In this document: positions 2,705 to 64,000 of the stretch, one piece after another
Layout of the letters: the number at the start of each line of letters is the position of its first letter
How positions within the stretch are numbered: position 1 is the first letter of the stretch
DNA from: an uncultured Gammaproteobacteria bacterium
GTDB taxonomy: Bacteria; Pseudomonadota; Gammaproteobacteria; Chromatiales; Chromatiaceae
Assembly (NCBI GenBank): GCA_963802205.1
Contig: CAWDHW010000017.1
Location: 803 to 64,802 of the forward strand
Direction of reading: 5' to 3'
DNA: 64,000 nt
Notes under the pieces: generated by a model
The model's database searches: none
Told to the model about the DNA's origin: nothing
Seen by the model: only the letters and a program-made list of their open reading frames with translations
Translations under genes and position numbers: made by a program

Positions 2705-3794
2705 TCAATCCCGGGCCTCGCCGCGGCCTGCGCGCCAGTGGCGGTAGACGAACAGTGCCAGGGTGACGACCGTCAGGGGCATGACGACGGTGCCCATGGC
2801 CAGGCTGAACGTCGCCAGGGCATCGTGTTCCGTGGCCTGGAGGACCAGGTAGACCGTGTAGGCGACGTAGTAGGCGAGGAACACCAGGCCCTCCCACCGA
2901 TCGATCCGGTTGCCGGTAAAGAACACCGGCAGGCAGGCCACGGCAACCGCGGTCATCACCGGCAGATCGAAGCTCAGCACCGCGGGCGCCATGGCCAGGC
3001 CCGTCGGCGCCACCAGGGCGGAAACACCCAGCACCCCCAGGAGATTGAAGATGTTGCTGCCGACCACGTTGCCGACGGCGATATCACGCTCCCCGCGGAC
3101 CGCTGCCAGGATCGAGGTCGCGACCTCCGGCAGCGAGGTCCCCGCGGCGACAATGGTCAGACCTATGACCAGCTCGCTGACGCCGAAGGCCCGGGCGAAG
3201 GCGATGGCCGCCTCGACCAGCCAATCGGCCCCCAGCACCAGCATACCAAGCCCGGCGGCGACCAGTAGGACCTGGACCGCCCAGTGCCGATCCCCAGGCG
3301 CTGCCATCCCCGGGCATGCCCTCCGCGTACTCGTCGTGCACTGACCTATCCTCCCGCCGGCTCTGGCGGATCACGAACAGGGTGTACGCGGCCAGCAGCC
3401 CCGCCAGCAGCGCCCCGTCCCAGCGGCCGATGCCGCCGTCCGCCGCCAGCCCCCAGACCAGCAGGGACGAACCGATCATAAGGGGTACCTCCTGGCGGAC
3501 AAGCTGTTGGTGCACCAGCAGCGGCACGATCAGGGCGGACGCGCCGAGGATGAAGAGCACGTTGAAGACGTTGCTGCCGACGACGTTGCCGATGGCGAGG
3601 TCCACCTGGCCGGACAGGGCGGACTGCACGGATACGGCCAGCTCCGGCGAGCTGGTGCCGAAGGCGACGACGGTGAGCCCCACCACCAGGGGCGAGATGC
3701 CGAAGGACAGCGCCAGCCGGGACGCACCGCGCACCAATGCCTCGGCGCCGACGACCAAGGCCACCAGGCCCAGAACAAACCAGAGCAACGACAT
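2705..3794 (-). pseudogene. CaCA-family Ca2+/Na+ antiporter (YrbG-like), one frameshift near 3300
   Basis: The first half comes from ORF 3084..3809 (MSLLWFVLG...GTSSPELAVSV...GNVVGSNVFNVL). The second half comes from ORF 2705..3307 (GTSLPEVATSI...GNVVGSNIFNLL). Both alpha-repeat motifs are present. Total length is 1 mod 3, and the switch is at cccgggg around 3300-3312. Confidence 0.85.
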
Positions 3795-4111
3795 GGAGAG
3801 CCCTCGCAAGGGTGTTGGAGTTGGATGGGCAGCAGGCGCCTCGCGATGGAGACCGCGCAGGCGCTAAGTCCCCTGGGGCACAGGGCAGAAGGCGGACCGG
3901 GCCGACTGCGCCCCGGGTGATCGAGCGCAACGGGCGGAAGGTGGCATCAAGGGCGACCGAAATCCAGGGGTCGCCCCCAGGACGAACCCAGCCCATCCAA
4001 GGTCAGGGCAAGATCCGCGCCCCGACCACAGGGCCCGCGCCGTCGTGGTGGCCGCCGCCCTGGCGGGTCGATCATGCCGTGCTTGGCGAGTCGGACGGAC
4101 GGCTCGGGGCC

Positions 4112-5170
4112 TCACCCAACCCAGATCTTTTCCCCGTACCCGGTCATCTCCAGATAGCCCCGCCCAACCTGAGGGCCGTCCTCTGCGACCCGCACCGCGC
4201 CCTCCCAGTAGACGGCCCCGGTGGAGCGGCGGCTGTCCAGTTCCTGGTCGTCCATCAGGGGTTGGAGCTGGAGCAGCCGGGTGCCGATGCGGACCCGCCA
4301 CGCCACCGGGTAGGCGATGCCGGTGCGCGGCGAGGTCCAGTAGCGCAGCGGCTCGAAGGCCACGGCCTCCGATGGCAACACCTGTGCACTGCCCCCGCTG
4401 GGCGGAAAGTGGCCGCGGACCAGAAGGGCTGGCCGTCCTGGCCGCGCAGTCGGAAGGCCATCAGGGCGTTGCCGTCGGCGAGATTCAGGCCGACCCAGTC
4501 CCAGCCTTGGGCCCCTTCGGGCAGGAGCTCGCTGGACCATTCGTGGTCCAACTAGGCCAGCCCCGTCACGGCCTGGGGACGGCCGTCCAGGGTCACGCGG
4601 CCGCTGACCTTGAGCTGCGGGCGGCTATAGTAATAGCTCGCGTGGCGCGGGTCCGGGGCCTTGGCGCTGAACCCGGCGAGGCCGTTGAGCAGGGGCGGGC
4701 CGTCGGGGACCAGGGACAGGGCATAAGCGAACCCCTCGCCACGGACCTCCGCCCGATAGCGGTCGTCGGTCTGTTCCAGGCGCCAGTCGCCGATCCACAG
4801 GTGCGTCTGCCCGGTCTCGAAGCCGGCGCGGCCGAACCCGACCCGGGCGGAGCGCTGGTCGTGACGCAGGCGGCCGAGGCGCGGGTCGGCGATGGCCGCA
4901 TGGGCGAGCAGCAACTGGCGCGGTGCGAAGGCGCTGGGGTTGGTCTCCCCGGTGCCCGTGTGCACGCGGAAGAAGGTCGCCGAGGCACTCGGCCGCGGGA
5001 AAGCCACCACCGATGCCCGTGCGCACGCGCAAGAAGGTGGTCTGGAAGCCCAACGGGCTGCCGTCGGGCAAGGTCAGCCAACCTGTGGCGTACCACCACT
5101 CGGTGCGGAAATTGGGGTGTGCGCCGTGATCGGCGGGAAAGGACAGGGCCAGGCCCGGGAGCACCGACGC
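4112..5170 (-). pseudogene. AttH/lipocalin-like (carotenoid 1,2-hydratase-family) protein, multiply disrupted
   Basis: Pieces lie in three frames: [22 protein letters not shown] (ORF 4625..5233), FFRVHTGTGETNPSAFAPRQLLLAHAAIADP... (ORF 4552..5010) and DHEWSSELLPEGAQGWDWVGLNL (ORF 4255..4551). The end piece ...PLRYWTSPRTGIAYPVAWRV...YWEGAV is in ORF 4112..4540. There is an in-frame TAG at 4552-4554 where W is expected. The 5' end is lost at the IS remnant. Confidence 0.75.
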
Positions 5171-13399: not shown

Positions 13400-14396
13400 A
13401 TGGGGGCCCAGGTCGCCAGCCTGAGCTGTACGGAGCCGTCGCCGGCCCAACGCACCCGCTTCGGTAGAATCGGGCCCCCGGCAGGGCGAGATTCCCTTCG
13501 CCGTCGTTCAAGGGTCCCCGCTGCTCAGCCTGCCCCTCGACCTCTACATCCCGCCGGATGCCCTGGAGGTCTTCCTCGACGCCTTCGAGGGTCCGCTCGA
13601 CCTGCTGCTGTATCTGATCAAGCGCCAGAACCTCGACATCCTCGAGATCCCGGTGGCTCAGATCACCGACCAGTACATGGTCTACGTGGACCTGATGAGC
13701 GTGCTTCGCCTGGAACTGGCGGCGGAGTACCTGGTCATGGCCGCCATGCTGGCGGAGATCAAGTCGCGCATGCTCCTGCCGCGCCCGCCCGGGGTCAGCG
13801 AGGATGAGGAAGACCCGCGCGCCGAACTGATTCGCCGACTGCTGGAGTACGAGCGCTTCAAGGGCGCCGCCCAGGACATCGACGCCCTGCCGCGGCTGGA
13901 ACGCGACCACCATGTCACCCAGGTGGCGGTGCCGCCGGGGCACACCCAGCGCGTCCCCCCCGCGGTGGACCTGCGCGAGGTCCTGCTGGCGCTGCGCGAT
14001 GTCCTGGCTCGGGCCGATCTCTTCACCAGCCACAGGGTGGAGCACGAGTCCCTGTCGCTGCGCGAGCGCATGTCGCTGGTGCTGGCGCGCCTGGCCGGCG
14101 GCGAGTTTCTGCTGTTCACCGACCTGTTCCCCTTCAGCGAGGGACGCGCCGGGGTGGTGGTCACCTTTCTCGCCATCCTGGAACTGACACGCAGCGCCTC
14201 CCTGGAACTGGTCCAAGGGGAGCCCTTCTCCCCCATCCATGTTCGACTGCGCCCGACCGAGCACCGCGGCGCCCCCGGGCCCGGGAGCGAGTTCGAGGAC
14301 GGCGAGACGACTGGCTCGCTGAGGGCGGGGAGGGGGCCTGGGAAGACATTCCCAACCCCGGCGCTGCGGGACGACGGCCTGGAGGAATCGCCGATG
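13400..14396 (+). pseudogene. scpA: Segregation and condensation protein A, start and stop both displaced by frame changes
   Basis: The conserved body (PLDLYIPPDALEVFLDAFEGPLDLLLYLIKRQNLDILEIPVAQITDQY...) is in frame 0 but has no ATG/GTG/TTG before GTG 13653. ATG 13400 lies in frame 2, across a C5 run at 13475-13479. Frame 0 has no stop before scpB, while TGA 14395-14397 (ATGA with the scpB start) is in frame 1. Confidence 0.7.
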
Positions 14397-15059
14397 ACCA
14401 CGCCCCCGCTGAAGCTCATCTGCGAGGGCGCCCTGCTCGCCGCCGGCGGGCCCCTGACCCTGGACCAGATCCTTGCCCTGTTCCCGGACGAGGAACGCCC
14501 GTCCCGCGAGGACATCCACGCCGCCATCGTCGCCCTGCGCCAGGACTGCGAGGGCCGTGCCCTGGAGCTGACTGAGGTCGCCGGGGGCTGGCGCCTCCAG
14601 GTCCGCCGCGAGATCGCACCCTGGGTCGGGCGCCTGTGGGACGAGCGCCCCCAGCGCTACTCCCGCGCCCTGCTGGAGACCCTGGCCCTGATTGCCTACC
14701 GCCAGCCCATCACCCGCGGCGAGATCGAGGACATCCGCGGCGTGGCCGTCAACAGCCAGATCGTCAAGACCCTGATGGAGCGCGAGTGGATCCGCGTCGT
14801 CGGCCATCGCGACGTCCCCGGGCGTCCGGCCCTGCTCGCCACCACCCGGCGCTTTCTCGACTACTTCGGTCTGCGCTCCCTGAACGACCTGCCGCCCCTG
14901 GCGGAGATCCGCGACCCCTCCTTTCTGGGCGAGGACGCAGGCGGGGCCGACGCCATCATGGGCGATCTGTTCGCCTCGCTGGCCGTTATCCCGGCCCCAG
15001 ATCCAGATCAGCCCCAGCCCCCCATTCAGCTAAGCCCACCGGAGATCGACCATGACTGA
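14394..15059 (+). CDS. scpB: Segregation and condensation protein B
   Basis: GGAGGA Shine-Dalgarno at 14381-14386, then ATG 14394. MTTPPLKLICEGALLAAGGPLTLDQI...RALLETLALIAYRQPITRGEIEDIRGV...LLATTRRFLDYFGL matches the ScpB winged-helix repeats. It forms part of the continuous ORF 13653..15059. Confidence 0.85.
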   Translation: MTTPPLKLICEGALLAAGGPLTLDQILALFPDEERPSREDIHAAIVALRQDCEGRALELTEVAGGWRLQVRREIAPWVGRLWDERPQRYSRALLETLALIAYRQPITRGEIEDIRGVAVNSQIVKTLMEREWIRVVGHRDVPGRPALLATTRRFLDYFGLRSLNDLPPLAEIRDPSFLGEDAGGADAIMGDLFASLAVIPAPDPDQPQPPIQLSPPEIDHD

Positions 15060-48228: not shown

Positions 48229-48291
48229 GGCCGGCGTCGGGCCCGCAATCTGTAATGCCGCCGCGCATTCACAGCCCGAGGACGTCTATCT

Positions 48292-50164
<1,873 letters not shown>

Positions 50165-50173
50165 GCCCCAATT

Positions 50174-50199
50174 GCGGCCGGCCCTCCCGGGCCGGCCGC
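50174..50199 (+). terminator. Strong GC hairpin after norB
   Basis: gcggccggccc-tccc-gggccggccgc is an 11-bp perfect stem starting 10 nt after the norB stop. No T-tract. Confidence 0.45.
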
Positions 50200-50310
50200 G
50201 GGTGCGGTGGGTCGCCCTGGCCTGCCGCATCCAACCCCCGGCGTTGTGTCGTGGGCCGTCGTCGGATCGTATTCCCGCTCTATTTTCCCTTTGGCTCTGT
50301 CTGCGTTGGG

Positions 50311-50386
50311 TGTAGGTCGGACTTTAGTCCGACCGGGCATCGCCGTATCCACCGAACACCACCGTCGGGCTGAAGCCCGACCTACA
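50311..50386. repeat. Inverted pair of REP-like palindromic elements
   Basis: tgtaggtcggactttagtccgacc (50311-50334) and gtcgggctgaagcccgacctaca (50364-50386, opposite orientation). The same unit occurs at 58595-58618. Confidence 0.7.
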
Positions 50387-50492
50387 CCTCCGGGGCGGCC
50401 TGCGGCGCAAGGGCCCAACACCAAACGCAGACATAGCCTTCCCTTTTCCCTTCTGCCGTGGTCGGCCGGATTGCGTTGGCGGCCTGGCCGAT

Positions 50493-51296
50493 TCACTTGA
50501 CCAGGCGCTCCGCCAGGTGCTCCGGTATGTCGATGGCGCCGGCAAAGTCTGCTCCCTGGACCTGGGCATTGGGGAAGCGCGCGTCGGTCAGGCGGGCGCC
50601 GCGAAAGCTGGACCCGGCGAGGTGGGCGCCATTGAGGAGGGAACCACCGAGGTCTGCCCCGGAGAGGTCGGCCCCCTCCAGGGCGGCACCGGTCAGGACC
50701 ACCTGGCGCAGGCTTGCCCCGGTCAGCCGGCTGTCGATGAGGACGCCCCGGAAGATGAAGGCGCGGTCCAGGTGGCTGCCGGTGAAGTCCGCCCCCTCGG
50801 CCAGCAGGTCCTTCATGTGGGCCTCCGAGAAGTCAGCCCCCCGGGCGCGGGTCTCGATGAGATTGGCGCCGAAGAGGTTGGCCTTGGCGAACTGAGCGCC
50901 GTCGACGAGGGCGCGGTCCAGGGTGGCGTGGAAGAGGTTGGCCCCCTGCAGGGCGGCGCCGCTGAGGTCGGCCTCGGCGAGGTTCGCCCACTGGAGGTTG
51001 GCGCCCTGGGCCCTGGCCCCCACCAGCCTGGCCCCGGAGAGGTTGGCGTTCTCCAGCCGGACCCCGTCCAGTTGGGTGCCGCTGAGGTCGAGCCCTGCCA
51101 GAGTGGCTCCGGCAAGGTCACAATGGCGCAGATCCGTGCGCGCGCGCGGGGTGGCGCAGTCCCCCTGGGGCAGGGTCTCTTCCGGGTGGGCGGGTGTGGC
51201 CATGGCCAGGCTGAGGACCATGAAGGCCGCGGTTTGGGTGCGCGACGGGGGAGGGGGCGGCGTCATGATCAGTCTCCAGGGGGTGGCCTCAGTCAT
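50493..51296 (-). CDS. Pentapeptide-repeat protein with signal peptide
   Basis: After a signal-like N-terminus, about 40 tandem A(D/N)LxG-type pentapeptides (ADLSGAALQGANLFHATLDRA...ANLFGANLIETRARGADFSEAHM...). Confidence 0.85.
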   Translation of the reverse strand: MTEATPWRLIMTPPPPPSRTQTAAFMVLSLAMATPAHPEETLPQGDCATPRARTDLRHCDLAGATLAGLDLSGTQLDGVRLENANLSGARLVGARAQGANLQWANLAEADLSGAALQGANLFHATLDRALVDGAQFAKANLFGANLIETRARGADFSEAHMKDLLAEGADFTGSHLDRAFIFRGVLIDSRLTGASLRQVVLTGAALEGADLSGADLGGSLLNGAHLAGSSFRGARLTDARFPNAQVQGADFAGAIDIPEHLAERLVK

Positions 51297-52026
51297 CGAC
51301 CGCAGCGAGGTAGGCGAGGATGTCCCCGAGTTCCTCCGGGGTAAAGTCCTTCAGGACGTCGTCCTCGGGCTCCTCCGGATCGTGGATGCGAATCCCCGTG
51401 CGGAACTTGTCGATCTGCCGCAGCAGGTAGGGGCTGTATTGCCCGGCGAGCTGGGGGATCTGCTTTTCCGCATCGCCCCAGCCCTCCGCGCCGTGGCAAC
51501 TGCGGCACTCCTTGTTGTAGCGCTTGCGTCCGGCCTCGGTGTCGCCGGGGTGGACGGGGATCTGCACCATCCTCTGCAAGGCCATCATGCGCTCGTAGGC
51601 GTCGAAGCGGGGGTCGGTCTCCGCCATGGGCTCCAACCGGGTCGGCAGGGAGATGGCGGTGAGGTAGGCGGCGATGTCGCGGATCTCCAGGTCGCTCAAC
51701 TGGCGCTCATGGACATGCTCCAGCATCGGCAGATTGGGCCGGGTGTTCTGCTGGAAGAGCTTGACCTGCTGGTAGATGTAAGCGATCGGGAGGCCAGCGA
51801 TACGGGGGTACTGCCCCTCCTTGCCGCCCTGGCCGACGTCACCATGGCAGCCGGCGCAGACGCCGTTGATGTCCTTACCCGTGAGCAGATCCGGCTCCCC
51901 TGGTGGCAGGTCAAACCCGGCCGCCCCGAGGGGGAGACAGACCAGGGCGGCCAGCCAGGCGGCGCGGGCCGCGGGCCACGGGCGCCGGGGTATATGCCAG
52001 CAGACAGAGGCAGGATCACTGAACAT
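51289..52026 (-). CDS. Dihaem c-type cytochrome (c4-like)
   Basis: Two CxxCH motifs (CAGCHG and CRSCHG), each followed by a ...PxLAGQ/IAGL... segment. Start taken at ATG 52024-52026 (MFSDPASV...), ahead of the signal-like LAALVCLPLGAAG. Overlaps the pentapeptide gene start. Confidence 0.8.
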   Translation of the reverse strand: MFSDPASVCWHIPRRPWPAARAAWLAALVCLPLGAAGFDLPPGEPDLLTGKDINGVCAGCHGDVGQGGKEGQYPRIAGLPIAYIYQQVKLFQQNTRPNLPMLEHVHERQLSDLEIRDIAAYLTAISLPTRLEPMAETDPRFDAYERMMALQRMVQIPVHPGDTEAGRKRYNKECRSCHGAEGWGDAEKQIPQLAGQYSPYLLRQIDKFRTGIRIHDPEEPEDDVLKDFTPEELGDILAYLAAVDD

Positions 52027-52076
52027 TTTGGCTCCCACCCGACGGGGCAGTCGGGTGACCGAAGCGATTGGGCTGA

Positions 52077-54110
<2,034 letters not shown>

Positions 54111-54174
54111 AGCCTCTGCCGGGGCTGGCCCTGTGGGCACAGCCCCGGCATGGTTGCCTAACTCGGAGCCTTCT

Positions 54175-54525
54175 ATGTCTTGGATGCGGATGGCCTTGTT
54201 GGGGTTGATCCCCTTGCTGGTCTTTACCGCCGTGGGTTCGGCCCTGGCCCAAGGCACCGGGCCAGGGCAGGTCAGTCCGGAACGACAAGCCGAGTTGCGC
54301 AACCTGCTGGTGCAGGACTGCGGCTCTTGTCACGGCCTGACCCTGCGCGGTGGGCTCGGGCCCGCCCTGCTCCCGTCCGATCTCGTCGGCAAGCCGCCTG
54401 CCTATCTGCAGGCAACCATTCTCTACGGTCGTCCCGGGACCCCTATGCCCCCCTGGCGGCCCTTTTTGAGCGACGCGGACTCGGCCTGGCTGGCCGAGAC
54501 CCTGCTACAGGGTTTGAACCCATGA
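54175..54525 (+). CDS. nirC: Monohaem cytochrome c55X (NirC)
   Basis: ATG 54175. Signal peptide, CGSCHG, and a MPPW region carrying the Met ligand. Located between nirS and nirF. Confidence 0.8.
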   Translation: MSWMRMALLGLIPLLVFTAVGSALAQGTGPGQVSPERQAELRNLLVQDCGSCHGLTLRGGLGPALLPSDLVGKPPAYLQATILYGRPGTPMPPWRPFLSDADSAWLAETLLQGLNP

Positions 54526-55706
54526 GTACACGACTGCTGGTCTGTCTGCTTGCCTTGAGCTCCGCTGCGGTCTGGGCCGCCGAGCCCCTGCGCGGGACCG
54601 GCGATCTCGGCCTTGTGGTCGAGCGCGCCCGCGGCAGCGTGCAAGTCATCGAGACCAGCACCGACACGGCCTTAGGAAGGGTTGAGGGGCTGGGCGACCT
54701 GTCCCACGCCTCCGCCGTCTTCTCCCGCGACGGGCGATATGCTTATGTCTTTGGCCGCGATGGCGGTCTGTCCAAGGTGGATCTGCTCACCCGCACCCTG
54801 GCCGGCAGGGTGGTGCAGGGCGGCAACAGTATCGGTGGGGCCATCTCCCAGGACGGGCGCCTGGTGGCTGTTTCCAACTACGAGCCGGGCGGGGTGCGCG
54901 TCTTCGATGCCGCGACTCTGGCACAGGTGGCGGACATCCCGGCGACCATTACAGATGGCCCCGATGGGAGCAAGGCGTCCAAGGTCATAGGCCTGGTGGA
55001 CGCCCCCGGGCAGCGCTTCGTATTCAGCCTGTGGGACTCAGGCGAGATCTGGGTCGCGGACCTGACCGATCCGACCAAGCCCCAGGTCCGTCGCTTCAAG
55101 GACATCGGCCGCCAGCCTTACGACGCCCTCATCACCCCCGATGGGCGCTACTACATCGCCGGGCTCTTCGGCGAGGACGGCATGGCCTTGCTCGACCTCT
55201 GGGACCTGGACGCCGGGGTGCGACGCATCCTCCCCAAGTACGGTCAGGGCAGCGAAAGGCTCCCCGTCTACAAGATGCCGCACCTGGACGGCTGGGCCAT
55301 CGCCGGGGACCGTGCCTTCGTACCCGCCGTCGGGGCTCATCAGGTCCTGGTCATCGACACCAACACCTGGGCCGAGGTTGGACGGATCGAGGTCTTGGGC
55401 CAGCCGGTCTTCGTCCGGGTTCGCCCCGACGGGCGCCAGGTATGGGTCAACTTCGCCCTGCCGGACAACGGCTCTGTCCAGGTGATCGATACCAAGGACC
55501 TCAAGATCGTTCAGACCCTGACCCCTGGGCCCGGGGTCCTGCACATGGAGTTCGAGCCCAAGGGCGAGGCGGTCTGGGTCTCGGTACGCGATGCCGACCG
55601 GGTGGATGTGTACGACACCGCGACCTTCGCCCGTACCGCGACCCTGCCGGCGGACAAGCCGAGCGGGATCTTCCTCACCGACCGCGCCAACCGGATCGGG
55701 CTATGA
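54522..55706 (+). CDS. nirF: Haem d1 biosynthesis protein NirF
   Basis: Signal peptide and a cd1-like beta-propeller without a haem c domain. Has the repeated ..DGRY/DGR.. blade pattern. ATGA-type coupling to nirC and nirD. Confidence 0.9.
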   Translation: MSTRLLVCLLALSSAAVWAAEPLRGTGDLGLVVERARGSVQVIETSTDTALGRVEGLGDLSHASAVFSRDGRYAYVFGRDGGLSKVDLLTRTLAGRVVQGGNSIGGAISQDGRLVAVSNYEPGGVRVFDAATLAQVADIPATITDGPDGSKASKVIGLVDAPGQRFVFSLWDSGEIWVADLTDPTKPQVRRFKDIGRQPYDALITPDGRYYIAGLFGEDGMALLDLWDLDAGVRRILPKYGQGSERLPVYKMPHLDGWAIAGDRAFVPAVGAHQVLVIDTNTWAEVGRIEVLGQPVFVRVRPDGRQVWVNFALPDNGSVQVIDTKDLKIVQTLTPGPGVLHMEFEPKGEAVWVSVRDADRVDVYDTATFARTATLPADKPSGIFLTDRANRIGL

Positions 55707-56173
55707 ACAGCGAGTCCTTGTTGCTGGACGCCATCGACCGGCGGCTGCTCAACGACTTCCAGCAGGGGTTTCCGCTGTCCGCGCGGCCCTATGCCGAGGT
55801 CGGGGCCAGCTTGGGGATCGGCGAGGCCGAAGTCCTGGCCCGCTTGACGCGCCTGCGCGCCGCCGGCGCCGTGAGCCGGGTCGGCCCCGTGCTGGCACCT
55901 AAGCGGGTCGGGGTCAGCACCCTTGCCGCCATGGCGGTGCCCCCCGGGCGCCTGGAGGCGGTGGCCGAACTGGTCAGCGCCTATCCGGAGGTCAATCACA
56001 ACTACGAGCGTAGCCACAGGGTCAACCTGTGGTTCGTACTCACCGCGCCGAACACGGCCCGCCTCAACGAGGTCCTGGCCGAGATCGCCCTGTACACAGG
56101 CATCGAGGTCCTGGACCTGCCGATGCTAGAGGAATACCACATTGACCTGGGGTTCCCACTGACATGGTCATGA
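55703..56173 (+). CDS. nirD: Siroheme decarboxylase subunit NirD (AsnC/Lrp-like)
   Basis: LDAIDRRLLNDFQQGFPLSARPYAEVGASLGIGEAEVLARLTRLRAAGAVSRVGPV...NHNYER. Confidence 0.8.
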   Translation: MNSESLLLDAIDRRLLNDFQQGFPLSARPYAEVGASLGIGEAEVLARLTRLRAAGAVSRVGPVLAPKRVGVSTLAAMAVPPGRLEAVAELVSAYPEVNHNYERSHRVNLWFVLTAPNTARLNEVLAEIALYTGIEVLDLPMLEEYHIDLGFPLTWS

Positions 56174-56784
56174 GCCACCCAATGCCTCCGGATGCCGTGG
56201 ACGCGGCCCTCCTGAACGCCATCGCCGGGGGTCTGCCTCTGGACCCCCGGCCCTACGCGGCGGTTGGGCGTCAGCTTGGCATGACCGAGGCCGAGGTCTG
56301 CGAGCGCTTGGGCCGGCTCCTGGCCGACGGGACCATCCGCCGTCTTGGGGTGGTGGTGCGCCATCAGGAGCTGGGCTACAGGGCCAACGCCATGGTGGTC
56401 TGGGCCCTGCCGGAGGAGCGGGTGACGGAGCTAGGGGAACGCATTGGCGGCTTGCCCTTCGTGACCTTGAGCTACCGACGGCCGCCGCGTTCAGGCTGGC
56501 CATATAACCTCTTCACGATGATCCACGGGCGCGACCGTGCCGCCGTTCTGGCCCAGGTGGACCGCATCAAGGAATTGTGTGGTCTCATGGCCGTGGACAG
56601 CGCCGTGCTCTTCAGCGGGCGTCGCTTCAAGCAGCGCGGGGCGCGCTACGGCGGGGCCCCCGCCGGGTCCGCGGAGGCCTTCGCCCCCAAACCTGATGCG
56701 CCTGCCGCACCAAGGCCGGCCTCGGTCGGGGCCATGTCCACTACGTCGTGCCGGCGCGACCTGCGCACCGATCTTTGCCCCTGA
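56164..56784 (+). CDS. nirL: Siroheme decarboxylase subunit NirL-like (AsnC/Lrp-like), with an unusual Ala/Pro-rich tail
   Basis: AVDAALLNAIAGGLPLDPRPYAAVGRQLGMTEAEVCERLGRLLADGTIRRLGVVV...VTLSYRR...NLFTMIHG. After FKQRGARY come about 45 non-conserved residues. Assignment as L rather than G or H rests on gene order only. Confidence 0.7.
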   Translation: MVMSHPMPPDAVDAALLNAIAGGLPLDPRPYAAVGRQLGMTEAEVCERLGRLLADGTIRRLGVVVRHQELGYRANAMVVWALPEERVTELGERIGGLPFVTLSYRRPPRSGWPYNLFTMIHGRDRAAVLAQVDRIKELCGLMAVDSAVLFSGRRFKQRGARYGGAPAGSAEAFAPKPDAPAAPRPASVGAMSTTSCRRDLRTDLCP

Positions 56785-57109
56785 TGGGGATGGTTTGTTG
56801 CCCTTTCCCTCAGCCGGGGGATGGTGCGCCTGCGGTTGGGTGACCTTCCCAACACCGTCGCTTTGATGCGTCGGCCACTCCAGCGCACCAGTCCCGCCAC
56901 TGGCCAGCCACGCCGGGCGCAAGGCCCAGGCCCCTCGGTCGCGGACGTCAGCCTACATCTCCTCCCAAGCCTCCGACCGGAGAAACAGAATCCGCGGTTC
57001 GCCGATCCCGATAGAATTGTCGGCAAGCGCCGAGGGTCCAGTCGCGTTTGGCATCCTGTCGCCGAACCGGTCCCTCGCCATCCGAGCCAACATCCACGGG
57101 AGCCGCAAC

Positions 57110-57910
57110 ATGAGCCTACTCCGGACGAGCCTTTTGGTGACCGCCGCTGTGGCGATCATCGTGACCACCGTCGTTCTGATGTCGCCGCGGGAGGAACCGC
57201 CGGTACCGGCGGCCCCCGGGGAGATGGCCAAAGAAGGGGGTGCCAAGGCACTGCCAGAAAAGGGCGCGGCGCCCGTCGCCTCAGCGGGGCACGAGAATAA
57301 GTCGGCACCCTCGACGACGGCGAAGGCAGTCCCGCCGCACCAGCTCCCGGCGCCGTCGGATCTCCCACCCCCGGCAGGACAAGCCAATGTTCCAGCTACG
57401 GGCCCTGCGGCTGGCGCCGGCCAGTCGGGAGGGTCGGCCCCACGTGAGACTGCCGCAGCGACGGATGCACCCGGTCCGGTGGGACAAAACTATGTGGTCA
57501 AGCGCGGCGACACACCGGCCAGCATCGCACGAGAGCACCTGGGCGACGCCTCGCGCTGGACTGAGATCGCGCGCGTCAACCCCGGGTTGGAGGCCAAGGC
57601 CCTCAAGATCGGTCAGACCCTGAGGCTTCCGGAGGGCGTCGCCGCCCAAGCCGCGGGGGCGCCGGTTGCGACGACGGCCAAGAAGCCAACCGCGGCTCCC
57701 GGGGTGCCGGCGGCACCCGGCGAACCGTTGGCCGTCCACCGTGTCGGCCCGGGTGACACCCTGTACAAGCTGGCGCGCAAGTACTACGGCGATTCGAGCC
57801 ATTGGAAGCTGATCCAGGACGCCAATCCCACCGTGGTGGGTGGCGGCGTGAGTGCCATGCGTCTGGGCTCCGAATTGATCATTCCCGCCCCACCGGGCGC
57901 GGGTCGTTGA
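57110..57910 (+). CDS. LysM-domain peptidoglycan-binding protein
   Basis: ATG 57110. TM anchor, a Pro/Ala-rich linker and two LysM repeats (YVVKRGDTPASIAREHLGD..RWTEIARVNP and HRVGPGDTLYKLARKYYGDSSHWKLIQDANP). Confidence 0.8.
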   Translation: MSLLRTSLLVTAAVAIIVTTVVLMSPREEPPVPAAPGEMAKEGGAKALPEKGAAPVASAGHENKSAPSTTAKAVPPHQLPAPSDLPPPAGQANVPATGPAAGAGQSGGSAPRETAAATDAPGPVGQNYVVKRGDTPASIAREHLGDASRWTEIARVNPGLEAKALKIGQTLRLPEGVAAQAAGAPVATTAKKPTAAPGVPAAPGEPLAVHRVGPGDTLYKLARKYYGDSSHWKLIQDANPTVVGGGVSAMRLGSELIIPAPPGAGR

Positions 57911-57999
57911 CCCAGCCCAGGCCCTGTCCCTCCAGCGCGCCTGCGGTCACCGTGCCCCGGGCTCCGCGATCTGTCCTGTCTCGGCTATCGGAGGCCGCC

Positions 58000-58590
58000 A
58001 TGTCCCCGTCCACTGTCCTGAAGCGCGATGCCCGGTACACTTGGGCGGATTACCGATCCTGGCCCGAGGATGAGCGTTGGGAGCTGATCGATGGGGTCGC
58101 CTATAGCATGTCGGCGGCGCCTTCGATTCGACACCAGGATGTTGTTCTTGGCCTCTCGAGCCGGCTCGAAATGCAGCTTAGGGGAAGACCCTGTCGGCCC
58201 TTCATCGCACCAACGGCCGTCAAACTGTCCGAGCACGACGTGGTTGAGCCGGACATCCTGGTGGTGTGTGACCCGTGCAAGATCACGCCGAGCCACATCG
58301 AGGGGCCTCCTGAACTGATCGTCGAGGTTCTCTCCCCCGGGACCTCGGCCAAGGACCTGCGCCCGAAGAAGGCCCTCTACGAGCGCGCTGGGGTATCCGA
58401 GTACCTGGTGGTCGATCCGCTGGAGCATTACGCCATCCGCTTTCTGCTCGGCGCCGACGGCTACGACAAGGGCACCGTCTTTGCCTGCGACGAGGTCCTG
58501 ACCTTCGCCACCCTGGCCGATGTCGAGGTCCCGCTGTGGGAGGTCTTCGGCCTCCCGGGGCCGGTGGAGCCAGATCCCGCCGCCGCGTGA
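58000..58590 (+). CDS. Uma2-family (DUF820) restriction-endonuclease-fold protein
   Basis: ATG 58000. WELIDGVAY.MSAAPSIRHQ...EPDILVV...PELIVEVLSPGT...D...K...Y...GV.EYLVVDP carries the PD-(D/E)xK pattern of Uma2. Confidence 0.85.
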   Translation: MSPSTVLKRDARYTWADYRSWPEDERWELIDGVAYSMSAAPSIRHQDVVLGLSSRLEMQLRGRPCRPFIAPTAVKLSEHDVVEPDILVVCDPCKITPSHIEGPPELIVEVLSPGTSAKDLRPKKALYERAGVSEYLVVDPLEHYAIRFLLGADGYDKGTVFACDEVLTFATLADVEVPLWEVFGLPGPVEPDPAAA

Positions 58591-58594
58591 CGGG

Positions 58595-58618
58595 TGTAGG
58601 TCGGGCTTCAGCCCGACC
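58595..58618. repeat. REP-like palindromic element
   Basis: tgtaggtcgggcttcagcccgacc sits 5 nt after the Uma2 stop. It belongs to the same family as the 50311-50386 pair. Confidence 0.6.
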
Positions 58619-58840
58619 GGGACTCTGACCACGCCACGCCCTCTCCCCAAGTCCTCCGAAGCGTCGTCCCTGCCGGGATGGCGGGACTTGAGGCTAGGGA
58701 TGGCAATGCCGCCCTATGCACCCGCTCGCAGAACCAGGTCCACCGCCCCGAATCCGACACGGCCGGCCGGGCCCTCGCGTCTCTGCTGCACCCGGATGTG
58801 CTAACCTTTGTCATCCGAACCGTCATACGAAGTGCGATAC

Positions 58841-59158
58841 ATGGGTGCTATCAGCCTGCGCCTACCGGACGACCTGGAACGTAAACTGGCCACCGAGGCC
58901 GAACTGGCCGGACGACCACGCTCCGAAGTGATCCGCGATGCCCTCGCCCAGTTCATTGCCCAGCGGGAGCGGGCGCGGTTCATCGCGGAGTTGGCCGCCG
59001 AGGCCAGGGTCGGATATGGCGATCCTGAATTGCGCCGTGAGGCCCTCGATATGGCGGAAGAGGCCGTGGCCTTGGGCAACGAGGCCCTCGATCTGGCGGA
59101 GGGCCGGAAGCCTGGCGAGTCCTGGCCCGAGGAACTTGGCGAGAAGTGGTGGAAGTGA
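58841..59158 (+). CDS. Ribbon-helix-helix (CopG-type) antitoxin
   Basis: ATG 58841. MGAISLRLPDDLERKLATEAELAGRPRSEVIRDALAQFI is an RHH fold motif. The stop overlaps the toxin start (ATGA at 59156-59160). Confidence 0.75.
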   Translation: MGAISLRLPDDLERKLATEAELAGRPRSEVIRDALAQFIAQRERARFIAELAAEARVGYGDPELRREALDMAEEAVALGNEALDLAEGRKPGESWPEELGEKWWK

Positions 59159-59499
59159 TGCGCCGAGGCGAGGTCTGGGTCGCCAACCTGAACCCACCTC
59201 GGGGGCGCGAGATCGGCAAGGTGCGACCGGTGGTGGTCATGCAGAGTGATGATTTGGATGCCGCTGTGACGCCCATGGTGGTCTGCCTGCCGCTGACCAC
59301 CCAGGTCTACTCAGGCTTCTCGCGCTGGCGGGTGACGCTGGCGGCCCGCGACCGTTTGCTCAAGCCCTGCCAGGTGGTGACCGACCAGCCCCGAACCCTG
59401 GACCGCGCCCGTTTCGGTGAGGGGCCCCTGACGACTCTGACGACGGATGAGTTGGCAGCGGTTGAGCTCAGCCTCAAGGCGGTGCTGGGGATGTGGTGA
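59158..59499 (+). CDS. mazF: PemK/MazF-family type II toxin (mRNA interferase)
   Basis: MRRGEVWVANLNPPRGREIGKVRPVVVMQSD...VVCLPLTT...VVTDQPRTLDRARF matches the MazF/PemK SH3-like fold pattern. Confidence 0.85.
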   Translation: MRRGEVWVANLNPPRGREIGKVRPVVVMQSDDLDAAVTPMVVCLPLTTQVYSGFSRWRVTLAARDRLLKPCQVVTDQPRTLDRARFGEGPLTTLTTDELAAVELSLKAVLGMW

Positions 59500-59802
59500 T
59501 CCTGGGACCGTGGGCTCCCCGCCCGCCGCGCAGCCTGGCGCCCGCCCTGGCATGGGGATGCGTCTTCCGATCTGGCGAGCGGCCTTTTGCGCTTGGGTAT
59601 CCCCGGCTCCAGCGCAGGGCGTTGCGATGACTGCCCGAAATGGGTCTACAGCAGGATACCCCGGTGTTGTCGCTCACGTTACTCCGCCAGCTTTTCCCAG
59701 AATAATCCGCGCCGGATCTGCCGGATTCCGCCACCGCTGTTGTCGAGGCTTGTGAGCCTTGACTATGCCAACACCCCTTGGGTCCTCGTTACGGCAGCAA
59801 CC

Positions 59803-59841
59803 GGCCATTATGTGTCGCCCCCAGTTATGTGTAGTACCCGG
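59803..59841. repeat. RIT left terminal inverted repeat
   Basis: GGCCATTATGTGTCGCCCCCAGTTATGTGTAGTACCCGG contains the subrepeat TTATGTG twice. Confidence 0.8.
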
Positions 59842-59900
59842 TCGCGACCGCGCATGCCGCCTGGAAGGCGAGCCTGCGATGCGGGCGCGACTCTCCATAA

Positions 59901-60920
59901 TCAGAGCGTCTTGAGGAACTGCAGCAACGCATCGGGAGCTTGGTACCGGGGCGTCTGCGCGTCGGGCTCCTGGAGTCGCGCAAGGGCGCTTTCCTTCATC
60001 GCCAGGTCCGCCTCGACGTACATGTGCGTAGTCGAGGGGCTTTCATGCCCGAGCCACAAAGCGATGACGCTAATGTCCACTCCCGCCTGCAGCAGGTGCA
60101 TCGCGGTCGTATGCCTGATGCAATGGGGAGAGATCTGGCGTTTGGCTAGACCAGCATGCTGCGTCGCGGCCGTCTGTACGGCCAGGGTCAGTCGCTTGGT
60201 CACATTGGATCGGGTCATCGCGTGACCATCGCGGTTCGGCAGCAATGCGCAACTGGCGACCAGCTGGGGATTTATCCGCAGCCAACCACGGATTTCCTGC
60301 ACCGTTGATCGCCACAGCGGCACCGCACGCTGCTTGCGTCCCTTGCCGTGTAGGCGAAGACAGGCGGGCATCATCCAGCACCACATCCGCCACGGTCACG
60401 GCGGTGATCTCCGAGACGCGCGCACCGGTGTTGTAGAGCAAGACCCAGAGGAGATGATCGCGCTGGCTGACCCAGGTATGGCCCGGCGCGCCGATCACCG
60501 CCAACATTTCCTCACGCGACAGAAACCCGAGCATGGGTGGCTCGAAGCGCTTCATCGGGATCCCGAGTGCCTGCTCGATGCTGTGCAGGGAGGACAGATC
60601 GCGATGGGAGGCGAACTTCAGGAAGGCCCGCAGGGCGGCCAGCCGCGCGTTGCGGCTGCGTACCGTGTTGTGCCGTTCCAGTTCCAAGTGATCCAGGAAC
60701 GCCAGGACCAATTCCTCCGTGAAGTCTGCCATCGCCATCTTCGGCCGGCGCTTTGGCCAAGTGCGCCTCGGCAAAGGCCAGGAACAGCATGAATGCGTCT
60801 CGGTAGGACGCCACCGTCCGCGGGCTGAGCGCACGCTGCGCAATGAGATACTCGGTGAGAACGCCTGCACCAGGGCGCAGAACGAGGGGGCGGAGGGTAG
60901 GGCTCGTGCGGTGTTATCAT
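59901..60920 (-). pseudogene. Tyrosine recombinase RitC-like, about 4 frame changes
   Basis: Conserved pieces sit in three frames: ALPSAPSFCALVQAF / LTEYLIAQRALSPRTVASYRDAFMLFLAF / FTEELVLAFLDHLELERHNTVRSRNARLAALRAFL...YNTGARVSEI. The C-terminal piece is LRLHGKGRKQRAVPLW...HCIRHTTAMHLLQAGVDISVIALWLGHESPSTTHMYV. The catalytic R..H-x-x-R..Y is recognisable. Confidence 0.7.
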
Positions 60921-61888
60921 TTTGCACCTCCCGCCCCAAAGCAAACTGCTCAAACTGGCCGGCGGCCACCGTCATGAGTTCGGGGACAGCGGTGAGGTAC
61001 CAATAGGTATTGGAGATCTTGACGTGCCCCATGTAGGTGGACAGCGCCAGCATCGCCTGATCAACCGTGGTTCCTTGCGTCTGCCAGAGCAGTACGCGCC
61101 GGACGGCGAAGGTATGACGCAAGTCGTGGATACGTGGTTGATCATGACCACCGCGACTGACCCACCCCAAGCGCTGGCGTAGCGCCACGAACACGCGCGC
61201 GACTTGCCGCAGGCTCAGCCCCGTACCCTTGCTGGAGACGAAGAACGGCATCTCGGGCGTGACCGCGACGTGGAGATTGCGCTGGTGTCGATAACACCGC
61301 AATGCGTCGAGCGTACTCGGCTGCAAGGGCAGTTGCCGCGATTTGGCGGATTTCGTCCGGCGAATCGTCAGCAGACCGAGTTTGAGGTCGAACGTCGGTC
61401 TCCAGCAGATGGACCGCCTCGGAGACGCGCAGTCCGGCCGCGGCGATGAGCCCAAACAGGGTTTCGTAGGTCGCTGGACGCAGGCCCCAGGGCGGCCCGA
61501 GGGCCCGTGCCGCCGCCAGCAGGTCCACAATCTCCTGCTCGCGATAGATGTGCGGCGTCAGCCGTTCTTGGATGGGGCCGAAGACCGACTCGTCCGGCAC
61601 TTCGGTGCGCGGCTCGAAACTGCGCGGATAGCGGGTGAACGGCCGCAGCAACTTCAGCCGGCGCGCCCAGGTGGTCGGGTCGTCCCGCGCCCATTTATCT
61701 TGCCGCGCCCACTGTGCCATGAGCGCCACGGTCAGCGGTCCGTGATCGTCCACCGTGTCGACATAGCGGGCGAAGTTCATCAGGGTGCGCCCGCTGGCGA
61801 TCAGTTCGAAACCCAGGCGGCGCCGCACGCTCAGCGAGGAAATTGCTGACCATCGCCTGGGCGAGTACATCGTGGCGGAGGTGTTCAT
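60917..61888 (-). pseudogene. Tyrosine recombinase RitB-like, about 2 frame changes
   Basis: The N-terminus is in ORF 61142..61888 (...GLRVSEAVHLLETDV). The catalytic part is in ORF 60070..61530 (LKLGLLTIRRTKSAKSRQLPL...IHDLRHTFAVRRV...LSTYMGHVKISNTYWYL). The natural TGA (60917-60919) is reached only in a third frame. Confidence 0.7.
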
Positions 61889-63132
61889 GTCGCACTCCCG
61901 GGCCAGGGCAGCGCGACGGCACCCAGGCGGTGGCTGTCGACCTTGGCGTAGATCAGTGCCGTGTTGAGTGATCGGTGCCGCAAGACATCTGCTATCTCCT
62001 TGATTGAGCTTCCTGATTCAACCAAATGACGAGCCAGCGCATGGCGTAGCGCATGACTGCGCCCATGGGTGAGACCGATGCGCCGGTAGGCATCGCGGAT
62101 GAGCCGGCGGACCGCGTCCGGACCGATGGGCATATCATGCGGCGCCAAGCGACGGACGAAGACCGCCGGGTTGGCGCTCGTCGGACGCTCATCGCGCAAA
62201 TACGCGGCGAGCGCCTCGCCGGTGGCGGGCGGCAACGGCAAGATGTCTTCGCGGCGCGACTTGGTGTGCCGCAACCGGAGCGTGCCGGCCTGCCAATCGA
62301 TATCGGCCAGCGCCAGCTGGGCGATTTCGCTGGCGCGCAATCCCAAGTCGAGCGCGCGACGGACCATGGCGTAGCCACGTCGGGGCGAGCGCAGATCTGG
62401 GGTGAACGAGGCCAGCAACCGCGCGATCTCCTCATCCGAGAGGGAGCGCGGCAGCGAGGCCAAGCCCCAGTGGGCCGGGGAGGCGACCACGCCAACGAGC
62501 GCGCCGACCTGATCCCCGCACGTGGCCCGGTACCGCAAGTAGGCGCGTAGCGCCGAGGTCACCGCGCTGGCATGGGCGGCGCTACCGGCGACGTTCCAAC
62601 TCACTGGCGAGAAATTGACGCACATCCGCTGGCTGCAGCCTGGAGATCACCACCGGCTGGTCGACGAAATGCGCCTCCAGTAGACACCGCACGACACGTA
62701 CGCGATCCTGGCGCGTCCCCTCGGCCAAGCCTCGCACACGGTGCATGTAGTCATCGAAACCGCAGAGTTCTGCTTCGATCGGCCCGGTCTTGGTCGCCGG
62801 CTCTGCAATGACGCCCTGTTCGCGCAGAACGCGAGCAGCAGCGCACAGCTTGCGTTGAGCTGGCACCGGTCAGGGGAGACCGGCTCCGGGTAGTTGCAAC
62901 GGTATTCGTCGAGGAGGCGGCAGACAACGCGTTCGTCCAGTTCCGCAATCGTGCACCGACTCTCGCTCATCCACTGCGCAAAGTGTGCGAGGCTCGACAG
63001 ATGTCTGCGGCGGGTTGTTGCCGCGTAACCGCCGGCCTTCAGACGGTCGGCGTACGCATCGATGTAAGGGGCAAGCTGGCTGTCGAGCAGCCAACTCTTG
63101 AGGACAGGCGATAGGGTGAGGATCGGGTCCAT
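61885..63132 (-). pseudogene. Tyrosine recombinase RitA-like, 2 frame changes
   Basis: The N-terminus MDPILTLSPVLKSWLL...LDEYRCNYPEPVSP is in ORF 62647..63174. The middle GVIAEPATKTGPIEAELCGFDDYMHRVRGLAEGTRQDRVRVVRCLL is in ORF 62582..62866. The catalytic C-terminus GLRASEIAQL...LRLRHTKSRREDILPL...SHALRHALARHL...LRHRSLNTALIYAKV is in ORF 61885..62625. Confidence 0.7.
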
Positions 63133-63248
63133 AGCAGTCTCCGCAGGTGGGTTGTCCACCAAAGAAGACCGCACGAATTATGGATAGCTCAGTGCCTGCC
63201 TCCATCCTTGAAGCCCTCGATCTAGCTGGCTCTATCCCTCCTCAGGAC

Positions 63249-63286
63249 CCGGTGCTACACATAACTGGGGGCGGCACATAATGGCC
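63249..63286. repeat. RIT right terminal inverted repeat
   Basis: Its reverse complement, GGCCATTATGTGCCGCCCCCAGTTATGTGTAGCACCGG, differs from the left IR by 2 substitutions and 1 indel. Confidence 0.8.
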
Positions 63287-63312
63287 GTTATGTTGAGCTA
63301 CACATAACGGCC
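63283..63312. repeat. Palindrome carrying the IR subrepeat, abutting the right IR
   Basis: ggccgttatgt-tgagcta-cacataacggcc repeats the GGCC.TTATGT unit of the IRs in both orientations. Confidence 0.6.
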
Positions 63313-63723
63313 ATAAGCCGCCGTCCCTCTCTGACAGAGGTGCCGCCAAGCGTCACGTCAACTCGCCACAGCTGCCATTTGGCGATGCTGGCTCGGTGAC
63401 TCTGCCTCACAGCTACTTCTTACGCTCGCCACACCACCGAACTTGTCGATCGCCGATGACTGGTTCAATCGCGCCCGTATGAATCCCTACAACACCCAAA
63501 GCAGTCGTTACTGGCTAGGAAACTGGCTTCCGCAGGCGGTTATTGCAAGATGGCTGAGGTAAGTGGTAGCGTTGCCCTAAATGCCAGATCTAACAAGATC
63601 AACATACGTTTACCCCAGATGGATTCGACTGGAGCATTTGATGTGAGTTACCAAGCACACCCAAGTACCATCTAGGCGTCTTTGTCGCGCTGACCCACAA
63701 CCAAGAACCACAGGGAATCAAGC

Positions 63724-64000
63724 ATGAAGCAGACTGAGACGACAACTCAGATCGCACACAATTGGCACTTTGCCCGCGATTTCCCCCAACTGCCCCCCCA
63801 ACCTCATTGAGCGTCCCCACCTTCTCGAGACTATTGTCGAAATACTAAGTAGCGACACCCCCATCGTCTTTCTTGAAGGCGAGGAAGGCGACGGCGCTAC
63901 CACCACTCTCGCGCAGTTCTGCCACAAGTATCCGGAACACAGCTTCTCGCTTTTTATCAAGCCTGCCAGCCGCTTTGCCTATAGCCTCGACTATCTCCGA
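63724..64000 (+). pseudogene. 5' part of a P-loop NTPase-like gene (runs off the window), frame change at a C7 run
   Basis: ATG 63724 gives MKQTETTTQIAHNWHFARDFPQLPP, then stops. From 63800 the next frame reads NLIERPHLLETIVEILSSDTPIVFLEGEEGDGATTTLAQFCHKYPEHSFSLFIKPASRFAYSLDYLR and is open to the window end. The layout resembles the N-terminus of STAND/AAA NTPases, with a Walker-A-like GEEGDGATT. The region is low in GC. Confidence 0.35.

Follow-up and report, generated by a model that had tools for sequence, protein, structure and literature searches.

What occupies the last few kilobases of this 64,000-nt stretch of DNA from an uncultured gammaproteobacterium (the window, in what follows), can it still move under its own power, and by what route would elements of its kind move at all? 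A sequence-only reading had proposed a recombinase-in-trio (RIT) element at 59803-63312, and both the assignment and the coordinates are borne out, in that gene order, ends and terminal palindrome recur in relatives. The element spans window positions 59802-63313 (3512 nt) and contains remnants of ritA, ritB and ritC on the minus strand. The locus is very probably a RIT element without coding capacity, belonging to a known family of ~3.5-kb elements, and its movement may have depended on short cores that resemble the XerC/XerD recombination site dif. The assignment to the RIT family as such is secure.

The element as a member of the RIT family

Three catalytic domains of the Phage_integrase family (PF00589) were detected by Pfam in the window, all on the minus strand, and tblastn with the trio of locus L001 mapped A, B and C on it in order. 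Here and below, L-numbers designate individual loci within a comparison set of ~150 related loci from genomes, plasmids and metagenome contigs. The description of three tyrosine-recombinase genes arranged head to tail therefore stands as regards order, strand and domains, but none of the three genes is open, each being split over two to three frames in the list of open reading frames (ORFs). A scan of genomes gave 12 loci, which belong to Alpha-, Beta- and Gammaproteobacteria. The A-B-C order with overlaps of 4-8 bp was found in 10 of these, which are all the loci that reach the three genes; L002 ends inside ritB, with ritA and ritB in order, and ritA of L009 leaves the contig end. Intact trios are present in L016 and in L020-L025. 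The combination of ritA-ritB-ritC, short overlaps, sub-repeated inverted repeats and an abutting palindrome recurs in alpha-, beta- and gammaproteobacterial genomes, in plasmids and in metagenomes. The lineage of the window element itself occurs in at least three different flanks at ~97.7% identity (window, L016 and L018), and its nearest genome-derived relative, L001, is 78% identical at the DNA level.

The ends of the element comprise the following features.

59803-59841, plus strand: ritC-side terminal inverted repeat, GGCCATTATGTGTCGCCCCCAGTTATGTGTAGTACCCGG, with an outer motif ATTATGTGTCG at 59807-59817 and an inner motif GTTATGTGTAG at 59824-59834
59891-59901, minus strand: third end motif on the ritC side, ATTATGGAGAG, which overlaps the stop codon of ritC and has the opposite orientation to the motifs of the terminal repeat
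63177-63187, plus strand: third end motif on the ritA side, ATTATGGATAG, upstream of the ritA start and mirroring the copy at 59891-59901
63248-63286, minus strand: ritA-side terminal inverted repeat, with an inner motif at 63255-63265 and an outer motif at 63272-63282
63283-63312, no strand: terminal palindrome (Pal), GGCCGTTATGTTGAGCTACACATAACGGCC, 30 nt, with two inverted arms of the GTTATGT(G/T) type

The terminal repeats had been described as near-perfect, with two substitutions and one indel between them. They are present, but an ungapped alignment gives 36 identities in 39 positions and three substitutions instead. The inverted-repeat match was obtained in none of 100 shuffles, and the repeat search extends the arms to 42 nt at 93% complementarity. 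The heptamer TTATGTG does stand twice in each inverted repeat, as claimed. It occurs five times in the 64-kb window, always in the element ends (two copies per arm and one in the palindrome), where 1.23 copies are expected by chance and no shuffle of 100 reached five. In the window element and its relatives, an 11-nt motif (TTATG-N3-AG) is found in three copies per end, two of them direct and spaced 17 nt apart in the terminal repeat, and a third, inverted, ~70 nt further in, either beside the ritC stop or upstream of the ritA start. The copy at the ritC stop occupies the same position in L001, L003, L009-L012, L016 and L020, and the palindrome adds two more copies. This palindrome, which had been noticed as an extra structure made of the same repeat unit and abutting the right inverted repeat, is confirmed at 63283-63312. 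As single-stranded DNA, the region 63268-63330 folds at -21.3 kcal/mol (z = -7.2). The ends, palindrome and junction cores of the window element are as good as those of intact copies.

These properties can be compared with those of described RITs (Van Houdt et al. 2009, 2012, PMC3414803; Ricker et al. 2013), the archetype of which is Rmet_1271-1273 of Cupriavidus metallidurans CH34. Like the window element, these are cargo-free, measure ~3.5 kb and consist of overlapping ritA, ritB and ritC genes. They have terminal inverted repeats of ~30-40 bp with an overlapping palindrome and a RitA with two core-binding domains, and they often lie at the edge of accessory DNA, as the window element appears to do. 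The window copy differs from them in being a trio of pseudogenes with nine frame-breaking indels. Its inverted repeats and palindrome agree with the account of RIT ends as inverted repeats plus an overlapping palindrome (Van Houdt et al., PMC3414803). RitA has been reported to contain two sequential core-binding domains, and RitC an extra conserved C-terminal helix (Smyshlyaev et al., PMC8138268). Two Phage_int_SAM_1 stretches were found by Pfam in L016 RitA and, together with Phage_integrase, in frame-corrected window RitA; frame-corrected RitC shows Phage_int_SAM_1 and Phage_integrase and continues for ~37 residues beyond the catalytic Tyr. After correction of the frames, each of the three proteins has its R…HxxR…H…Y residues and the domains expected of it.

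Frame-corrected RitB matched 493 plasmid records (tblastn). It is 58.6% identical to RitB of Aromatoleum aromaticum EbN1 plasmid 2, which Van Houdt et al. (PMC3414803) named as a RIT host, 48.3% identical to a locus on a Mesorhizobium MAFF303099 plasmid and 46.6% identical to loci on Sphingobium herbicidovorans plasmids; all three plasmid hosts are named in RIT papers. The element itself had no match among PLSDB plasmids by megablast. On EbN1 plasmid 2 (L013, 125221-130037), an ISAzo6 (IS1634-like) insertion parts ritC from ritA-ritB, and a second ISAzo6 and another integrase gene flank the RIT; this arrangement exemplifies the 'complex combinations' of Van Houdt et al.

Three unrelated integrases, or the remnant of a prophage or integron, accompanied by a chance inverted repeat, would leave the same generic Pfam name and the same 'XerC/XerD' database names, which are all that speaks for such an origin. 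Against it, the A-B-C order, the overlaps, the length of the relatives (3466-3493 nt repeat to repeat) and the repeat-plus-palindrome ends are found in dozens of unrelated contexts, the repeat match lies far beyond chance, and no attI, cassettes, phage genes or cargo are present inside the repeats. This explanation deserves practically no credence and, judged by the comparative sequence data, can be regarded as already refuted. The window element is also distinct from better-known systems. Tn554, strand-biased circularizing integrative elements (SE) and GInt islands (PMC10214605, PMC5385486) resemble RITs in that several tyrosine recombinases act together and no target-site duplication is made, but their subfamilies are distinct from those of RIT. 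SE and GInt have four genes, including a non-recombinase (GinC/Tfp, GinD/Srap), and cargo; between the window repeats, by contrast, the three recombinase genes are the only ORFs with homology. Tn554 combines two recombinases (TnpA and TnpB) with a small TnpC and resistance cargo, in contrast to the three recombinases of the cargo-free RITs, and neither a TnpC-like ORF nor cargo was found at the window locus. The integron plan of a single IntI, attI and attC cassettes does not apply either, as the locus has no cassette array and its genes are homologous to the Rit subfamilies.

Loss of the three recombinase genes

The metagenome contig L016, with an intact trio of 415, 320 and 339 residues, served as the reference for decay. 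The longest open piece of the trio (the RitA C-terminus, 246 residues) is 99% identical in a protein search to P0001, an intact protein of 415 residues encoded on L016. The window element and L016 are 97.66% identical over 3549 nt, with 62 substitutions, and their alignment contains nine indels whose lengths are not multiples of three, all specific to the window copy. The same positions stand out in comparison with L001, which is more distant and also intact. The indels are distributed as follows.

61885-63132, minus strand: ritA pseudogene, -1 at 62835 and +1 at 62588, with ~82 codons out of frame
60914-61888, minus strand: ritB pseudogene, +8 at 61867, +4 at 61830, +1 at 61392 and -1 at 60918
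59901-60920, minus strand: ritC pseudogene, -1 at 60918, -1 at 60859, +1 at 60741 and +1 at 60368

RitA terminates at 62647 after its out-of-frame stretch. In RitB, the +8 and +4 insertions scramble ~10 N-terminal residues and the frame shifts again at 61392, while the deletion at 60918, which lies in the ritB/ritC overlap, additionally abolishes the ritB stop frame. In RitC, the correct frame is lost from codon 2 onwards. Thus, RitA, RitB and RitC cannot be made from the window copy, and the intact mobile unit implied by the sequence-only reading gives way to an element in which all three genes are inactivated relative to a 97.7%-identical intact copy. One of the ATGA overlaps in that reading is affected as well. 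Both are read on the minus strand; the one at 61885-61888 is the intact ritA/ritB overlap, but the one at 60917-60920 is not a genuine stop/start. The ritB/ritC overlap of L016 reads ATGTATAA, and the window ATGA results from a 1-nt deletion in this ancestral overlap, by which one T was lost.

The window copy is accordingly an inactive, recently inactivated member of a known family. Comparison of the window copy with L016 gives a ratio of nonsynonymous to synonymous substitution rates (dN/dS) of only 0.25 and reveals no in-frame stop, which indicates that inactivation was recent. The same two observations can be turned against decay, as can the high ratio of indels to neutral substitutions and the fact that all but one of the seven 1-nt indels alter the length of short (1-3-nt) runs, which residual assembly errors in a multi-copy repeat could mimic. 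All but the indel ratio have a place in the alternative that the element is intact and active and that its nine indels were introduced by faulty assembly or polishing, with errors concentrated in a multi-copy repeat (for example, where ambiguous mapping of short reads keeps a long-read consensus from being corrected). So do the retained catalytic residues, the next gene, which is frame-broken at the C7 run 63793-63799, and a Na_Ca_ex gene at 2705-3863 that may also be split. However, the 8-nt (TACTCGCC) and 4-nt (GCGT) insertions are atypical of consensus errors. In addition, ~40 other window genes over 60 kb have full-length Pfam coverage with no comparable breakage seen, which makes a general sequencing problem unlikely, and a second related element, L019, carries a split ritB, so RIT copies do decay in nature. 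On balance, an intact element disguised by sequence errors is distinctly improbable, and genuine decay is the reading adopted here. The locus is best annotated as three pseudogenes and not as three integrases; as an inactive selfish element it is of little import for the genome itself.

The L019 element (3331-4293) comes from an NCBI metagenome assembly and its RitA is 84% identical to that of the window; its ritB is divided into pieces of 237 and 82 residues. RIT pseudogenisation is not unique to the window. Programmed frameshifting was considered for the window genes and ruled out by the nine indels, which fall at unrelated sites and are all absent from the intact relative. A sigma-70 promoter scan of the element found none, and the single terminator-like match is below chance. 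YrbG-type proteins normally carry both Na_Ca_ex domains in one chain. On the minus strand at 2705-3863, the two domains lie in different overlapping frames (3087-3863 and 2708-3370), and this locus may represent a second frameshifted window gene, with a bearing on assembly quality.

Junction cores, the terminal palindrome and a possible route of movement

The borders of the window element are organized around short cores and the DNA that adjoins them.

59755-59801, plus strand: ritC-side flank, a copy of a ~48-nt repeat (…ACTATGCCA…GTCCTCGTTACGGCAGCAAC); target DNA, outside the element
59802-59807, no strand: core CGGCCA at the ritC-side junction, directly repeated at 63308-63313
63282-63287, no strand: core TGGCCG between repeat tip and palindrome arm, within the dif-like CATAA-N6-TTATG site at 63273-63297, GGCACATAATGGCCGTTATGTTGAG
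63308-63326, plus strand: outer core CGGCCA (63308-63313) followed by half-site X, ATAAGCCGCCGTCC (63313-63326)

All compared junctions have a 6-bp core, TGGCCG/CGGCCA, in a CATAA-N6-TTATG geometry; at the far junction, CATAAT-GGCC-G precedes variable DNA in every one of the 20 complete related elements. The E. coli dif site is GGTGCGCATAATGTATATTATGTTAAAT (PMC3025954). Its CATAA-TGTATA-TTATG has the same geometry as the CATAA-TGGCCG-TTATG formed where the RIT repeat tip meets the palindrome. Compared by eye, window positions 63273-63297 share both arms and 18 of 26 positions with E. coli dif, the mismatches falling mostly in the spacer. The recombinases of XerC/XerD-dif, a system for the resolution of chromosome dimers, and of the integrative elements (IMEX) that make use of it are, like those of RITs, Xer-like 'simple' tyrosine recombinases. 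RITs differ from these systems in encoding three recombinases of their own, in having several arm copies per end as well as a palindrome, in the core TGGCCG, and in inserting at many sites rather than at the chromosomal dif.

The palindrome may quite possibly be a conserved, movable part of RIT elements, as several comparisons suggest. The complete genome of Methylomicrobium sp. wino1 contains five identical copies, in which the palindrome lies on the ritA side (L003, L004 and L006) or on the ritC side (L005 and L007). Within a family with identical RitA (L020-L026), it is found on the ritA side, on both sides (L021 and L025) or flipped (L023). Repeat motifs and palindrome arms change together between lineages (TTATGTG, TTATGCA, TTATGCG, TCATGCG and CTTATGC). 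Deletion of trio plus palindrome exactly restores an IS66 transposase ORF in L011 (…AVRPLAVGRKNWLFVGS…) and an integrase ORF in L007 (…ERKVASSTQNQAMNALVFLY…), and neither insertion is accompanied by a target duplication.

Beyond the palindrome lies a conserved half-site X with the consensus A-N4-C-N-G-N-C. In 57 unique RIT-linked flanks, A1 is found in 57, C6 in 46, G8 in 56 and C10 in 57, and the window X matches all four conserved positions. In L007 and L011, X belongs to the interrupted gene (AAAATCAGGC and AAGAACTGGC) and is therefore target DNA. On the ritC side, homology between the window and L016 runs ~34-50 nt past the repeat tip. The ~48-nt flank repeat, which occurs only once in the window, resembles the flank of L016's own RIT and is also identical in 39 of 48 positions to a copy at L016:195-243 that has no element beside it and is followed by CGACCC and an X-like AGACCTGTCACTC. 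This second, unoccupied copy indicates that the flank is a short host repeat serving as a target; by the same token, a second degenerate palindrome or a longer element end was ruled out as the source of the homology. The region L016:195-260 looks like an empty RIT target, 1.7 kb from the occupied one.

A mode of movement can be proposed on this basis. The element and its palindrome would probably excise together by recombination between the two directly repeated cores (window 59802-59807 and 63308-63313), each core being flanked, in the manner of dif, by putative recombinase-binding arms in the CATAA-N6-TTATG arrangement. In the window, excision would leave …GGCAGCAAC-CGGCCA-TAAGCCGCC…, and the predicted empty site is GTTACGGCAGCAACCGGCCATAAGCCGCCGTCCC. 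The palindrome would supply a second, inverted core, so that the element could open on either side; re-integration through one or the other of the cores flanking the palindrome would then place it on either side of the trio. Integration would take place at targets with a GGCC-like core beside an A-N4-C-N-G-N-C half-site, which may often be provided by short host repeats, the window target being the end of the ~48-nt repeat. The window copy might be mobilized only in trans, by recombinases from an intact copy in the same cell.

For the RIT family as a whole, this scheme of dif-like cores, movable palindrome, target half-site and host-repeat targets is put forward with perhaps nearly an even chance of being right, and several observations count against it. 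Exact ORF restoration was found in two cases only, and 8 further complete metagenome elements gave nothing convincing; these insertions are probably intergenic or their contigs chimeric, and short-read metagenome contigs across a 3.5-kb repeat can indeed be chimeric. At least 120 loci in the metagenome scan contain GGCCGTTATG-N8-12-CATAACGGCC. Among the matches listed, ~60 palindromes adjoin a single repeat tip and none adjoins two, and the 58 palindromes with scorable flanks that stand alone make up about half. X half-sites border 26 of these 58 on both sides, as would also fit if RITs land at palindromic host repeats that were already in place. A circular junction (repeat-palindrome-repeat) did not appear in any of the ~120 palindrome loci listed, and read mapping by Nielsen et al. 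(PMC5737581) detected no circular RIT intermediates.

The solitary palindromes raise the alternative that the palindrome lies outside the mobile unit and is a pre-existing host palindromic repeat (X-Pal-X'), similar to repetitive extragenic palindromic sequences, beside which RITs insert. Solo palindromes in metagenome contigs, nearly half of them with X on both sides, would be expected in that case, and it is also in keeping with this alternative that the palindrome always adjoins an X half-site and that the other flank of the window element is a host repeat. It is difficult to reconcile with the L007 and L011 ORFs, which are restored only if the palindrome goes together with the trio, with the co-variation of palindrome arms and repeat motifs in each RIT lineage, and with identical copies in one genome that carry the palindrome on either side. 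A host origin of the palindrome is therefore considered unlikely. In five of the solo cases (L081, L094, L113, L123 and L128), the palindrome is abutted on one side by ATTG(G/T)ACTAA(A/C)CCGCT… instead of a RIT repeat; a different type of element, relying on the same palindrome and core, may end here.

A rare core variant bears on excision and re-integration. L003 has TGGTCG at its outer ritC-side junction, and L007 has it internally, where repeat and palindrome meet; all other copies have TGGCCG. The presence of the variant in these two loci is as expected if an element of the L003 type was excised and re-integrated via its other core. In Tn554, SE and GInt, junction ('coupling') bases likewise appear to travel with the element. 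Tn916 and CTnDOT form heteroduplex coupling sequences, and L007, too, has two unlike junction cores, CACCCA derived from the target and CGGCCA derived from the element, which would fit a reaction that does not depend strictly on core homology. Unlike RITs, however, Tn916 and CTnDOT are large conjugative elements with one integrase of another recombinase clade, an Xis and no palindrome.

RITs could, as a tentative extension of this scheme, be self-contained dif-like integrating units in which three classes of half-site (repeat tip, palindrome arm and target X) might correspond to the three recombinases, the window copy then being a natural non-autonomous substrate. The proposed mechanism is, to our knowledge, unpublished, Ricker et al. 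2013 lying outside that comparison, and we know of no laboratory reproduction of RIT transposition. RITs are widespread and mechanistically unsolved. The conserved core, the putatively movable palindrome and the target half-site would turn their movement into a set of defined experiments, and this mechanistic picture, built on sequence comparison, may go beyond published work and is directly testable.

Genes on either side of the element

The element had been placed at the border between high-GC, core-like DNA and a low-GC island. From a GC fraction of 0.676 to the left (55000-59802), the value falls to 0.643 within the element and to 0.541 to the right of it (63313-64000). The drop is real, but the claim of an island rests on only 688 nt; the core-like character of the left side is borne out by its genes. 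The element appears to mark a junction of core DNA, represented by a nor/nir cluster, and accessory DNA. In the low-GC DNA on its right (63726-64000), an ORF beginning with ATG at 63726 stops at ~63810, and a second frame from 63800 (NLIERPHLLETIVEIL…GEEGDGATT…) has a weak match to nSTAND_NTPase5 (E = 0.0037). With C6 in place of the C7 run at 63793-63799, the two frames would become one; a STAND NTPase gene that is frameshifted or phase-variable could lie here, or the run could be a homopolymer error.

To the left, housekeeping functions comprise ScpAB, RluB, MutY, PBP1B, Pgi, Zwf and a class I (Trp/Tyr-type) tRNA synthetase. The ScpA and ScpB domains share one stop-free frame at 13425-15056; they may be fused, or they may belong to neighbouring genes that no in-frame stop separates. 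A denitrification cluster at 48256-56784 encodes a norC-like cytochrome c, norB (COX1 family), a pentapeptide-repeat protein, a di-haem cytochrome c, nirS (cytochrome cd1), a nirF-like gene and siroheme decarboxylase regulators of the nirD/L type. Between the nir genes and the element, a gene for a Uma2-family nuclease is found at 57.8-58.6 kb, and an overlapping pair of a ribbon-helix-helix antitoxin and a MazF (PemK) toxin (58808-59158 and 59146-59499) lies directly left of the element.

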